Below, piece after piece: positions 56,892 through 59,635 of a stretch of 64,000 bases of DNA. The stretch is from Bacteroidota bacterium (lineage in GTDB: Bacteria; Chlamydiota; Chlamydiia; Chlamydiales; FEN-1388), in NCBI GenBank assembly GCA_013285825.1, contig JABDGV010000001.1, forward strand, positions 167,242 to 231,241, written 5' to 3'. Position numbers and translations under genes: made by a program. The first letter of the stretch is position 1; every line of letters starts with the position of its first letter. The notes under the pieces are model-generated. The model had not been told where the DNA came from, did no database searches, and saw only the letters and a program-made list of their open reading frames with translations.

Positions 56892-57752
56892 TTACTTATC
56901 GATTGGACGTCTGCCGATATATAAACGGGTCCAAGCCTCTATTGTAGGCTGTATATCGCCTAATTTTTTAAATATTTCGGCCATGCGCTCTCGCATTTCG
57001 TTAAGAGCAGCTGGCTGATCTTCTGGATCGATCTCATTCCAACGACTTGTAGATTGCACTCGAGCAAGTTCTTTTTCGAGGTCTGTAGGAACTATCTGAG
57101 AAAATGCCTTTACCTCTTCGGGTGTTTCGAAGTTAAACTTCTGCATAATCTTAATAGGATCAAAATCTGGATTATCGATCTTTGGATGCTTGACGATTCT
57201 CTTAATATATTTTTTTTGAATGTCGCCAATTACTGCCTTGAGTTCTTTGGACAATGGATCGTTATGCAAATCACGTGCGATATGGACAATGGCCAGTATT
57301 CCGCCCGGTTTCAACACTCTAAAGAGCTCTGGTAAAGATCCTTGAGTTGCCTTCTCGTCTTTACAAAGCCAATGAAAAGCTGTGCAGACGGTGATGAGGG
57401 AAAATTTCTTATCCTCAAAAGGTATTTTCTTGGTCGCATCCCCATGAATATAGTTGATACGATTGCTTTTATCTTTACTTTCTTCGATTTTTCTTGCCTG
57501 ATAAAGCATCGCATCATCGATATCCAAACCCTGTACGTTTGGGAAGTAGGGCTGCAATTCATTTGTTGCAATACCTGTTCCGCATGCAACGTCGAGAACC
57601 TCAGCATTACTATCGTTAATCAGGTTTACCAAATGCTCATAGAGCGGCTTTGGATAGCCATCACGGCCCTTGCTGTACTGCTGTGAATATTTACCAAAGT
57701 TGGTTCCTTCAATATTTTTTACTTCCAAAGAAGGCTCATTTCTAACGCTCAT
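56892..57752 (-). CDS. class I SAM-dependent methyltransferase, tandem paralog 1 (no signal peptide)
   Basis: VLDVACGTGIAT, FSLITVCTAFHWL, RVLKPGGILAIV. The start at 57752 (MSVRNEPSLEVKNIEGTNFGKY) is preceded by TAAGGAAAATT, the same RBS context as the two paralogs. The track start at 57845 would overlap the upstream gene. Confidence 0.8.
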   Translation of the reverse strand: MSVRNEPSLEVKNIEGTNFGKYSQQYSKGRDGYPKPLYEHLVNLINDSNAEVLDVACGTGIATNELQPYFPNVQGLDIDDAMLYQARKIEESKDKSNRINYIHGDATKKIPFEDKKFSLITVCTAFHWLCKDEKATQGSLPELFRVLKPGGILAIVHIARDLHNDPLSKELKAVIGDIQKKYIKRIVKHPKIDNPDFDPIKIMQKFNFETPEEVKAFSQIVPTDLEKELARVQSTSRWNEIDPEDQPAALNEMRERMAEIFKKLGDIQPTIEAWTRLYIGRRPIDK

Positions 57753-57774
57753 AATTTTCCTTACTATATTAAAT

Positions 57775-58662
57775 TTACTCTTGTACTGGACGCTGACCAA
57801 TATACATCCCGGTCCACAGCTCTTTCGTTGTTTGATCGCTGCCAAGCTTTTTAAATATTAGGGTTACTCGATCTCGATATTCTTGGAGGGCCGTAGGCTG
57901 ATCTTGAGCATCAATTTCATTCCACTTACTCTGAGATTGAACTCTGGCGACTTCCTTTTCAATGTCCGTGTTCACCTTATATGAAAACAGCATCCTCGCC
58001 TCTGGAGTTTCAAAGTTGAACTCCTGCAAAACTTTTAGTGGATTGTAGTTAGAATTGTCATATTTAGGATGCTTTACATCTATCTTGGTATACTTTTTGC
58101 GCACTTCACTCGCTGAAGACTGGATCGCTGCAAAGAATTCATCTCTCTGTAAATCTTCCGCTGGCTCGATAACAGCTAATATCCCGCCCGGCTTCAATAC
58201 CCGATAGAGCTCAGATAATGCCGCCTGCTTTGTCTTTTCGTTTTTGATAAGCCAATGGAAAGCTTCGCATATGGTGATGAGGTCAAATTGCTTATCTTTA
58301 AAAGGCAACTTCCCTGCCACATCAGCATGAAGATATTTGATGCGGTTGCCTTTATTCAATTTCTCGATTCTTTTAGCTTCCTTGAGCATCCTCTTGTCAA
58401 TATCCAAACCCAGTACATGTGGAAAATGTGGCTTCAATTGACGAGTTGAAATACCGGTTCCGCATGCAACGTCGAGAACGGATGCGTTGCTATCATCAAT
58501 CAAATTTGCCAGGTATTCAAAGGCCGCTGGTGCATGCTGGTCTCGACCTTTAGTGTACTGCTCTGCGTACTTACCAAAGTTGGTTCCTTCAATATTCTTC
58601 ACTTCCTCTGCATTCGATATTGCATTGGAAAGAAGCAAGCTCAAAATAAGTAGATATTTCAT
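57775..58662 (-). CDS. class I SAM-dependent methyltransferase, tandem paralog 2 (signal-peptide-like N-terminus)
   Basis: MKYLLILSLLLSNAISNAEEVKNIEGTNFGKY..., VLDVACGTGIST, FDLITICEAFHWL, RVLKPGGILAVI. The start at 58662 is preceded by TTAAGGAACTT. Confidence 0.8.
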   Translation of the reverse strand: MKYLLILSLLLSNAISNAEEVKNIEGTNFGKYAEQYTKGRDQHAPAAFEYLANLIDDSNASVLDVACGTGISTRQLKPHFPHVLGLDIDKRMLKEAKRIEKLNKGNRIKYLHADVAGKLPFKDKQFDLITICEAFHWLIKNEKTKQAALSELYRVLKPGGILAVIEPAEDLQRDEFFAAIQSSASEVRKKYTKIDVKHPKYDNSNYNPLKVLQEFNFETPEARMLFSYKVNTDIEKEVARVQSQSKWNEIDAQDQPTALQEYRDRVTLIFKKLGSDQTTKELWTGMYIGQRPVQE

Positions 58663-58741
58663 AAGTTCCTTAATAGATTTACTTTTTAAGGCAACAGCTT
58701 GAATCACAAGCTGTTGCTGAGTCGATTAAGCCGTGCAGGAT

Positions 58742-59635
58742 TTACTCTTGAACCGGACGCTTGCCGATATACATTTTGTTATAGGCATTCTTCGTTATCT
58801 GTTCGCTGCCAAACTGTTTAAATATCTCGACCATTCGTTCTCGATATTCTTGAAGGGCAGCTGGCTGATCTTTGGAATCGATTTCATTCCACTTGCTTGC
58901 AGATTGCACTCGGGCGATCTCTTTTTCAATGTCAGTCATAACTTTATGAGAGAATATCTTCTCCCCTTGTGGGGTTTGAAAGTTGAACTCCTGTAAAACA
59001 TTGAGAGGATTGTAGGCAGAATTGCCTGATTTAGGATGGAGCGCTTGTACTTTGGTATACTTTTTGTGAACATCATCTGATACAGACTTCTTCGCTACAG
59101 AAAATGGATCTTTTTCCAATTCAAACCCACTATGAACAATTGCCAGTATCCCGCCCGGCTTCAATACTCGATAGAGCTCAGCCAAGGCTGCTTTTTTTGT
59201 CTCTTCATTTTTAACGAGCCAATGAAAAGCTTCGCATATGGTGATGAGATCAAATTGCTTATCTTTGAAAGGGAGCTTCTTGGCCACATCAGCTTGAAAA
59301 TACTTGATGCTTCGGCCAGTGCCTGTATTCATCTTCTCAATTCTTTTAGCTTCTTTAAGCATCGCCTTATCGATATCCAACCCTTTGACTCTTGGGAAAT
59401 AGGGCTTCAACTGACGAGTTGCAATACCTGTTCCACAGCCTACATCGAGAACAGATGCGTATCTATTGTCAACCAAATGAGCCAAGTACTCAACCATCTC
59501 AGGTGCATATTGGTCACGGCCTTTACTGTACTGCTCTACGTACTTGCCAAAATTGGTACCCTCGATATTTTTTACATCTTGAGCGCTCGTTACTGAATTC
59601 AAAACGAGCATGCTGATAATAATTAGATATCTCAT
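58742..59635 (-). CDS. class I SAM-dependent methyltransferase, tandem paralog 3 (signal-peptide-like N-terminus)
   Basis: MRYLIIISMLVLNSVTSAQDVKNIEGTNFGKY..., VLDVGCGTGIAT, FDLITICEAFHWL, RVLKPGGILAIV. RBS TTAAGGAAAGT. Confidence 0.8.
   Translation of the reverse strand: MRYLIIISMLVLNSVTSAQDVKNIEGTNFGKYVEQYSKGRDQYAPEMVEYLAHLVDNRYASVLDVGCGTGIATRQLKPYFPRVKGLDIDKAMLKEAKRIEKMNTGTGRSIKYFQADVAKKLPFKDKQFDLITICEAFHWLVKNEETKKAALAELYRVLKPGGILAIVHSGFELEKDPFSVAKKSVSDDVHKKYTKVQALHPKSGNSAYNPLNVLQEFNFQTPQGEKIFSHKVMTDIEKEIARVQSASKWNEIDSKDQPAALQEYRERMVEIFKQFGSEQITKNAYNKMYIGKRPVQE

Follow-up and report, generated by a model that had tools for sequence, protein, structure and literature searches.

The mtA-mtB-mtC array

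We analyzed a 64,000-nucleotide stretch of contig JABDGV010000001.1 (assembly GCA_013285825.1), referred to below as the window, and within it an array of genes for class I S-adenosylmethionine (SAM)-dependent methyltransferases. In the array, three consecutive head-to-tail open reading frames (ORFs) occupy 56.8-59.7 kb of the minus strand; we call them mtA, mtB and mtC in the order of transcription. A distant paralog, mtD, lies nearby on the plus strand. Two of the three array proteins, MtA and MtB, begin with predicted signal peptides and may be exported from the cytoplasm. The features of the array are as follows.

59635..58742, minus strand: mtA, class I SAM methyltransferase of 297 aa, first gene of the array (ORF, Pfam match and AlphaFold2 (AF2) model)
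59639..59644, minus strand: ribosome-binding site (RBS) of mtA, AAGGAA (read from the sequence)
59582..59635, minus strand: predicted Sec/signal peptidase I (SPase I) signal peptide of MtA, MRYLIIISMLVLNSVTSA then QD (signal-peptide heuristic)
58717..58691, minus strand: perfect 11-bp hairpin in the mtA-mtB gap, without a U tail (-21.4 kcal/mol, z -3.2)
58662..57775, minus strand: mtB, class I SAM methyltransferase of 295 aa if translated from the RBS-preceded ATG (ORF and Pfam match)
58666..58671, minus strand: RBS of mtB, AAGGAA (read from the sequence)
58609..58662, minus strand: predicted signal peptide of MtB, MKYLLILSLLLSNAISNA then EE (signal-peptide heuristic)
57752..56892, minus strand: mtC, class I SAM methyltransferase of 286 aa without a hydrophobic N-terminus, last in transcription order
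57757..57762, minus strand: RBS of mtC, AAGGAA (read from the sequence)
56872..56841, minus strand: hairpin resembling an intrinsic terminator at the end of the array, with a 13-bp stem and a UUGUUU tail (-23.1 kcal/mol, z -6.1)
53729..54556, plus strand: mtD, distant paralog of 275 aa with 28% identity to MtA and a signal-like N-terminus

Each of the three array genes has AAGGAA 3-4 nt upstream of its ATG, in the context ATTAAGGAA for both mtA and mtB and GTAAGGAA for mtC. The database annotation starts mtB at a GTG at 58707, which gives a protein of 310 aa and falls at the stem-loop junction of the 58717..58691 hairpin. We consider the ATG at 58662 to be the better start because it is preceded by an RBS. 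The RBS in front of the signal-encoding ATG of mtA and of mtB is strong. There was no downstream alternative start with an RBS in mtA or mtB, and the next in-frame methionine of either gene would delete conserved core motifs. The start of mtD is less certain because its RBS is weak; it also has an internal ATG at codon 8. The mtB stop and the mtC start are separated by 22 nt with no structure in between, and this close spacing, together with the single terminator, suggests that mtA, mtB and mtC are co-transcribed as one unit. The hairpin between mtA and mtB is possibly an attenuator, a processing element or a stability element.

A first-pass annotation of this DNA, made by a model from the sequence, had described a tandem triplication of a SAM methyltransferase closed by a hairpin terminator. 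That description stands: there are three paralogous minus-strand ORFs matching Methyltransf_11/25, the terminator is present at the end of the array, and the shared blocks that had been quoted (VKNIEGTNFGKY, VLDV(A/G)CGTGI, HWL, RVLKPGGILA and ARVQS.S(K/R)WNEID) were all found, as were the similar RBS contexts. The copy it had numbered first, and had recognized as having no signal peptide, is mtC, which is transcribed last. To these features we add the 11-bp hairpin between mtA and mtB, the paralog mtD, and the old age of the duplication.

The three array genes are old duplicates under purifying selection. Amino-acid identity is 68% between MtA and MtB, 56% between MtA and MtC, and 57% between MtB and MtC. 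The synonymous divergence (dS, Nei-Gojobori) of the same pairs is 0.94, 1.44 and 1.91, and the ratio of nonsynonymous to synonymous divergence (dN/dS) is 0.21, 0.22 and 0.17. The age of the duplicates follows from the high dS and the low identity, and the selection from a dN/dS near 0.2. These dS values rule out a recent expansion of the array, and the earlier description of a recently expanding family must be replaced by one of ancient duplicates.

The triplication is real. The three genes differ from each other in 25-35% of their nucleotides, and an independent Logan assembly of sequencing run SRR8423505 has the same gene order and matches the window with no mismatches across 15,259 nt. Together these two results rule out a collapsed or expanded repeat, a possibility that had been raised with the initial description.

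All four proteins, MtA to MtD, look catalytically competent, with an intact SAM-binding core, because each retains the residues that are invariant among 50 family members (R40, C67-G68-T69-G70, D87, R156, L158 and K159). The most diverged part of the copies is the substrate-binding cap (residues 171-235), which is inserted after the Rossmann core. Identity in the cap is 40-51%, with a ratio of nonsynonymous to synonymous differences per site (pN/pS) of 0.4-0.6, compared to 59-79% and 0.2-0.4 in the core outside the cap. The divergence of the cap suggests that the copies may differ in substrate specificity. Positive selection was not found: pN/pS exceeded 1 nowhere except in the signal peptide, whose 17 codons are too few to interpret.

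Enzyme class, N-termini and family

MtA, MtB and MtC matched the Pfam Methyltransf_11/25 models with 73-88 bits (63-88 bits when MtD is included) against cut-offs of 21-27. The E-values for the three array proteins were between 1e-20 and 1e-25, with 5e-25 for MtA and Methyltransf_11. The glycine-rich class I motif I (VLDVGCGTG or VLDVACGTG) and the GLDID motif, whose D87 is the acidic residue at the end of beta-2 that would bind the SAM ribose, are present in MtA to MtD, and their residues are invariant across the 50 family members. None of the curated NCBIfam models reached its cut-off for the window methyltransferases. Scores were 68-77 bits for BioC (cut-off 185), 66-79 bits for UbiE/MenG (cut-off 158) and 39-51 bits for the Tam models PRK01683/PRK14103 (cut-offs 297-320). 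Because these scores are so far below the cut-offs, we do not place the proteins in any of these named biosynthetic families, although BioC and UbiE/MenG are the labels that automatic pipelines tend to assign. Among the Pfam matches of MtA to MtD there were no SET, PRMT, DOT1 or DNA-methyltransferase signatures.

The AF2 model of MtA, with a predicted local distance difference test score (pLDDT) of 92 and a predicted template modelling score (pTM) of 0.88, has a Rossmann fold and a cap. A Foldseek search with this model returned more than 1,600 methyltransferase chains at E<=1e-3. The best full-length matches were HvrF (9e72, with S-adenosylhomocysteine (SAH) and pantaphos; template modelling (TM) score 0.66/0.78), the yeast trans-aconitate 3-methyltransferase Tmt1 (3g5t; 0.65), 4hg2 and TTHA0223. 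They were joined by GtmA and TmtA, which are thiol methyltransferases of gliotoxin (TM ~0.57), and Agrobacterium Tam (2p35; TM 0.52-0.54) matched more weakly. Compared with PDB sequences, and counting full-length matches only, the family profile found HvrF (2.9e-23), Tmt1 (1.2e-20) and the juvenile-hormone-acid methyltransferases (JHAMT). According to bioRxiv 10.1101/2022.11.22.517531, HvrF is an O-methyltransferase that is thought to handle a dicarboxylate-like phosphonate when it occurs as the unwanted isomer. By fold and profile, the window proteins resemble small-molecule methyltransferases of the carboxylate/thiol type and not modifiers of proteins, histones or DNA. Since the window proteins share only 15-19% identity with Tmt1 and HvrF, this resemblance gives a lead to the substrate class but does not assign it.

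The N-termini of MtA and MtB fit a cleavable Sec/SPase I signal peptide and are short for a membrane anchor. MtA begins with M-R and YLIIISMLVLNSV, has TSA at positions -3 to -1 and continues with QD; R2 is the basic residue, and the uncharged stretch is 17 residues long. MtB begins with M-K and YLLILSLLLSNAI, has SNA at -3 to -1 and continues with EE; K2 is basic, and the uncharged stretch is 16 residues long. The hydrophobic core of these signals is 9-12 residues. Both proteins fit the pattern of a heuristic for tripartite signals: the n-region is basic, the h-region falls within 7-15 residues, and the c-region has small amino acids at -3 and -1. The two segments are only 41% identical, and their hydrophobic character is nonetheless conserved. 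In the AF2 model of MtA, residues 4-15 form a helix of low pLDDT, followed by a disordered linker and then by a well-packed domain from about residue 22. MtD begins with MKWILIFMSTISLPTTVLSG then KQ and is signal-like by the same heuristic. No lipobox cysteine of the kind used by signal peptidase II was found in MtA, MtB or MtD, which have no cysteine within residues 1-25, and the twin-arginine (Tat) motif is absent from all three, there being one R or K, at position 2. The heuristic was made by hand and was passed by 9 of the 53 ORFs in the window (17%). The two signal-peptide-like sequences noticed in the initial annotation are those of MtA and MtB, and our analysis favors a cleavable Sec signal over an anchor for both.

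MtC starts with MSVRNEPSLEVKNIEG (MSVRNEPSLE), which aligns with the c-region (SV...) of the MtA signal across a gap of 12 codons. This alignment is weak evidence that MtC arose by a 5' deletion of the signal region. For the history of the signal, two independent gains are no less and no more parsimonious than a single gain with a later loss.

Most of the wider family has no such N-terminus. Among 5.8 billion clustered proteins, the only close homologs were P0004 (45% identity, 296 aa, signal-like) and P0005 (37% identity, no signal). The remaining homologs are about 250 aa long and have 28-35% identity over 80-90% of their length. Those from reference genomes belong mostly to Patescibacteria, DPANN archaea, Proteobacteria and Actinobacteria, and approximately 68 of 75 have no hydrophobic N-terminus. 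The exceptions that carry both a signal and a taxonomic label come from the metagenome-assembled genomes (MAGs) L004 (Chlamydiales), L033 (Chlamydiae) and L048 ('Verrucomicrobia'). All of the taxonomically labelled members with a signal therefore belong to the Planctomycetes-Verrucomicrobia-Chlamydiae (PVC) group, and they are mostly chlamydial. When the family profile was run exhaustively against 1.84 billion representatives, 101 proteins reached E<=1e-30. Among the best 150 representatives, 17 have a signal-like N-terminus (268-299 aa in length) and 133 have no hydrophobic N-terminus. The initial description had left room for ordinary periplasm-facing proteins found across bacteria. Since most surveyed members have no signal, a common periplasmic family is ruled out.

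Neighbour-joining trees, built with the N-terminal columns excluded, grouped MtA with MtB (bootstrap 96%), these two with MtC (100%), and all three with P0004 (98%). MtD fell in a separate clade of 28 members, 61% of which bear a signal. Because the signal-bearing members cluster in this way, the predicted signal is a heritable trait of two subclades in a normally cytosolic family and did not merely turn up by chance in two genes.

A 4-kb Logan contig from run SRR8423505, the run that also contains the window genome, encodes a further signal-bearing member, P0490 (L089, 586-1416; 276 aa, MFSRVFISIVSAVLFTTSLSSA then QE). P0490 may be a fifth paralog of this genome; neither its G+C content (GC, 0.458) nor the tetranucleotide correlation (0.87) is decisive either way. 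Another relative, P0371, is found on metagenome/Logan contigs of about 1.2 kb and was the sixth-best match among the 1.84 billion representatives (303 aa, 32% identity to MtA). It shares the VEGTNFG motif and has a poly-Asn/Ser insert typical of dictyostelid-like eukaryotes, which hints at gene exchange between amoebae and chlamydiae. The signal-free members of the signal-rich clades (among them P0404, P0443, P0467, P0484, P0005, P0369, P0370 and MtC) often have hydrophilic, Ser/Thr-rich N-terminal extensions of 15-35 residues. These extensions might be signals for another export route.

Host lineage and genomic neighbourhood

The window comes from a deep-branching environmental chlamydia, a placement that is based on homologs of serine hydroxymethyltransferase (SHMT) and RlmD. 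The named matches of SHMT are Parachlamydia acanthamoebae (64%), a 'Chlamydiae bacterium' (64%) and a 'Verrucomicrobia bacterium' MAG (63%), with 80% for the closest match overall. The best named matches of RlmD are Parachlamydiaceae MAGs (55-57%), with 66% for the closest overall. Other genes in the window encode a phosphoketolase, a mitochondrial-type aconitase, Lnt and RNase P RNA (the SHMT is of the PRK13580 type), and a V-type ATPase lies just past its end. This chlamydia is known from one genome, and the ten window proteins that were looked up were all singletons or near-singletons. The main features outside the array are listed below.

10421-10817, minus strand: class A RNase P RNA (212.8 bits), housekeeping
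37831-37913: tRNA-Leu(TAA); GC drops directly after it from ~0.46 to 0.35-0.43, up to ~60 kb
41761-43965: WD40 protein, in the low-GC region
44178-45851: TIG-domain protein, in the low-GC region
46141-48543 and 51269-52141: two eukaryote-like kinases, in the low-GC region
52740-53489: orphan passing the signal-peptide test
54585-55274: signal-bearing beta-carbonic anhydrase

The low-GC region also holds several orphans, mtD and the mtA-mtB-mtC array. An integrase-type genomic island is not supported: the window has no second copy of the tRNA 3' end, and none of the island proteins scanned with Pfam matched an integrase family. The region is compositional and lineage-specific and is not a demonstrable mobile island.

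Genes that pass the signal-peptide heuristic are concentrated around the array. Between 52.7 and 63.3 kb, 6 of 11 genes passed, versus 3 of 42 in the rest of the window. The six (the orphan at 52740-53489, mtD, the beta-carbonic anhydrase gene, mtB, mtA, and a gene for an S-adenosylmethionine decarboxylase) lie within 52740-63305 and seem to form a local cluster of genes whose products are predicted to be exported.

The decarboxylase (62820-63305, plus strand) is a divergent SpeD-type protein, residues 46-159 of which match TIGR03330 with 37 bits, below the cut-off. Its N-terminus is extended by 45 aa, and this extension contains a hydrophobic segment, an AXA-like site and a LIGC sequence resembling a lipobox. 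The protein is a second kind of SAM-using enzyme with predicted export, 3 kb from the array. An orphan of 549 aa (59759-61408, plus strand) is transcribed divergently from mtA. It has many hydrophobic segments, no Pfam match, and three internal modules that each close with an R.YM.P motif and a charged tail behind it. The orphan is possibly a membrane protein of the Inc-like kind.

The array is lineage-specific and lies at a variable site. In the two closest relatives with a retrievable rlmD locus, the side that runs from the V-ATPase through UPF0158 to rlmD is conserved and the array is absent. The array-side flank is occupied by unrelated genes, an orphan in L085 and a gene for a SET-domain protein in L086. 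In L086 (GCA_964577935.1, a related chlamydial MAG), the SET-domain gene (8929-9909) adjoins rlmD, and further downstream (11506-13991) lie five tandem paralogs, whose products are 155-165 aa long and match no Pfam family. With this SET-domain gene and these tandem paralogs at the equivalent site, the rlmD flank seems to be a hotspot of lineage-specific, effector-like gene families. In L085, the closest relative, rlmD is followed by a gene for a different class I methyltransferase (3531-4178; 215 aa, 21% identity to MtA) and by genes for two ankyrin-repeat proteins; the window has the S-adenosylmethionine decarboxylase gene at that position.

Possible functions and related systems

We put at roughly one in two the probability that MtA and MtB are Sec-exported small-molecule methyltransferases working with SAM from the host, whether in the periplasm, in the inclusion or in the host itself. 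MtA and MtB would cross the inner membrane by Sec and be cleaved after residue 18, and MtD, with its own predicted Sec signal, would likewise reach the periplasm. Once exported, MtA and MtB could act in the periplasm or travel on to the inclusion lumen or the host cytosol, as has been described for CPAF, and host-derived SAM would serve them outside the cytoplasm. Because of the fold, the most likely substrates would be small carboxylates or thiols, or peptide termini. MtC, which has lost its signal or never had one, would serve a cytoplasmic pool or leave the cell by another route.

Work on other chlamydiae bears on both the route and the methyl donor. Signal peptides are present in 13 of the 19 Waddlia proteins that were detected in the host cytosol, and CPAF also reaches the host cytosol (PMC7143554). 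CTL843 of C. trachomatis imports host SAM and exports SAH, and many chlamydiae are without metK (PMC3104491). The objection that an exported enzyme would have no SAM is lessened, because host SAM that is imported by chlamydiae should pass through the periplasm. The first-pass annotation had reasoned that export makes sense mainly for targets outside the bacterium. That premise was too strong, because SAM should occur in the periplasm wherever chlamydiae import it from the host across the envelope, as at least some of them do.

Several findings weigh against export of active enzymes to act on the host. The phrase 'periplasmic methyltransferase' was found nowhere in a search of about 8 million papers, and extracytoplasmic SAM catalysis is almost unprecedented in bacteria. 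MtC indicates that the enzyme can function without a signal. The signal-peptide call comes from a crude heuristic that 17% of the window ORFs pass. The proposed chemistry is drawn from Tmt1 and HvrF at 15-19% identity, with no NCBIfam cut-off reached. In addition, the signal-bearing relative P0421 is encoded among two-component, TetR and glycosidase genes, and a signal peptide alone therefore proves no host-directed role.

A broader proposal, which we offer tentatively and think has perhaps a minor share of the probability, is that these enzymes are an innovation of the PVC/chlamydial clade: Tmt1-like proteins with Sec signals that would act outside the cytoplasm on host SAM and methylate host or environmental metabolites, and that were amplified in this lineage to an array of at least three. 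Possible roles would then include detoxifying dicarboxylates or thiols, or depleting a host signal. If true, this would define a new class of Sec-dependent effector.

It is unlikely, in our estimate, that the N-termini are uncleaved signal anchors that tether the enzymes to the inner membrane, facing either the periplasm or the cytoplasm, with envelope, lipid or quinone-like substrates. A tether facing the cytoplasm would solve the supply of SAM, the L033 homolog has a longer hydrophobic N-terminus, and eukaryotic class I methyltransferases with hydrophobic N-terminal anchors exist (the METTL7/TMT1 family). However, the uncharged stretch of 16-17 residues, with its hydrophobic core of 9-12, is short for a membrane span, the small residues at -3 and -1 are canonical for cleavage, and MtC and most relatives have no tether at all. 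Moreover, the R or K at position 2 and the D or E after the segment predict an N-in/C-out orientation, which would place the catalytic domain in the periplasm regardless.

We give still poorer odds to secreted effectors that methylate host proteins or chromatin in the manner of nucleomodulins, which was the reading of the earlier annotation. Secreted bacterial methyltransferases that act on host chromatin or DNA are known (PMC10117894), eukaryote-like kinases and a WD40 protein are encoded in the neighbourhood, and a relative has a SET-domain protein at the equivalent rlmD flank. The window proteins themselves, however, lack a SET domain and any signature of PRMT, DOT1 or DNA methyltransferases, and no nuclear localisation signal is evident in them. 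Their nearest full-length structures and profiles are small-molecule carboxyl or thiol methyltransferases, and the known chromatin-directed examples use a type III or type IV secretion system (T3SS or T4SS), not Sec.

Equally improbable, we think, are ordinary cytoplasmic housekeeping or detoxifying methyltransferases, in which the N-terminal segments are irrelevant or the true starts are elsewhere. The family is mostly cytosolic, with proteins of about 250 aa, MtC has no segment, and mtD has a weak RBS and the internal ATG at codon 8. In mtA and mtB, on the other hand, the sole start preceded by an RBS encodes the hydrophobic segment, and starting at the next in-frame methionine would remove core motifs. 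The signal-like character has been kept in both MtA and MtB across a dS of ~0.9, and the signal recurs as a clade-level trait among relatives. Finally, an assembly artefact, in line with the presence of the array in only one genome, can be dismissed given the 25-35% nucleotide differences between the copies and the independent assembly, which agrees fully with the window along 15.3 kb.

Should MtA and MtB prove to be exported and active, small-molecule SAM methylation would be added to what intracellular bacteria are able to do outside their own cytoplasm. Manipulation of the host or the environment by these enzymes would be metabolic and not epigenetic, and there would be a concrete reason to ask about the use of host SAM in the chlamydial periplasm and inclusion. 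The subfamily is recognizable (~275-300 aa, with a signal peptide, FG..Y..GR..YP and QS.S.WN), and chlamydial genomes could be screened with these features for candidate Sec-dependent effectors. If the proteins are cytoplasmic or merely tethered to the membrane, the array would be an ordinary lineage-specific expansion of paralogs.

By fold and profile, the window proteins are most like the trans-aconitate-type small-molecule carboxyl methyltransferases, with yeast Tmt1 (3g5t), Tam (2p35; E. coli/Agrobacterium) and Pantoea HvrF (9e72), and like JHAMT. All of these likewise have a Rossmann core, an N-terminal 'Y..GR..YP' helix and a C-terminal cap. These enzymes differ in being cytoplasmic and without a signal peptide, and they are 15-19% identical to the window proteins. 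The cytosolic homologs of about 250 aa (from Patescibacteria, DPANN, Proteobacteria and some Chlamydiae) share FG..Y..GR..YP, LDLGCGTGI(A/S)TRQL, AFHWF, RVLKPGG and QS.S.WN. They are single copies and do not have the N-terminal extension.

The route proposed for MtA and MtB is that of CPAF, which has a Sec signal and passes from the periplasm to the inclusion lumen and the host cytosol by means of a type II secretion system (T2SS) or of outer-membrane vesicles (PMC7143554). Unlike MtA and MtB, CPAF is a protease, and the Sec-dependent chlamydial cargo reported so far includes no methyltransferase. Intracellular bacteria do deliver other SAM-dependent methyltransferases to the host, including NUE, RomA/LegAS4, BtSET, Rv1988, Rv2966c and Mhy1-3 (PMC10117894). 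Effectors of the NUE/RomA type are SET, PRMT-like or DNA enzymes with protein or DNA targets and use T3SS, T4SS or unknown routes; none of them combines a Tmt1-like fold with a Sec signal.

In a literature search for the phrase 'secreted methyltransferase', the matches were PbBSMT, METTL9 or mycobacterial proteins. The METTL9 preprint aside, we know of no other extracytoplasmic SAM-dependent methylation, and the activity proposed here would be the first in bacteria. PbBSMT belongs to the SABATH family and is hence homologous to the window proteins only at the level of the class I fold. PbBSMT of Plasmodiophora brassicae is a secreted salicylic-acid methyltransferase with a signal peptide (Ludwig-Muller 2015, cited in PMC7317818). 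By analogy, it resembles what we propose for the window proteins, in that a carboxyl methyltransferase for small molecules, dependent on SAM, is released by an intracellular organism and acts on a metabolite of the host. It differs in being eukaryotic and in having a demonstrated activity. What would be new in the present case is a Tmt1-like small-molecule methyltransferase with a predicted Sec signal that has been amplified in an intracellular bacterium, and we regard MtA and MtB as reasonable effector candidates.

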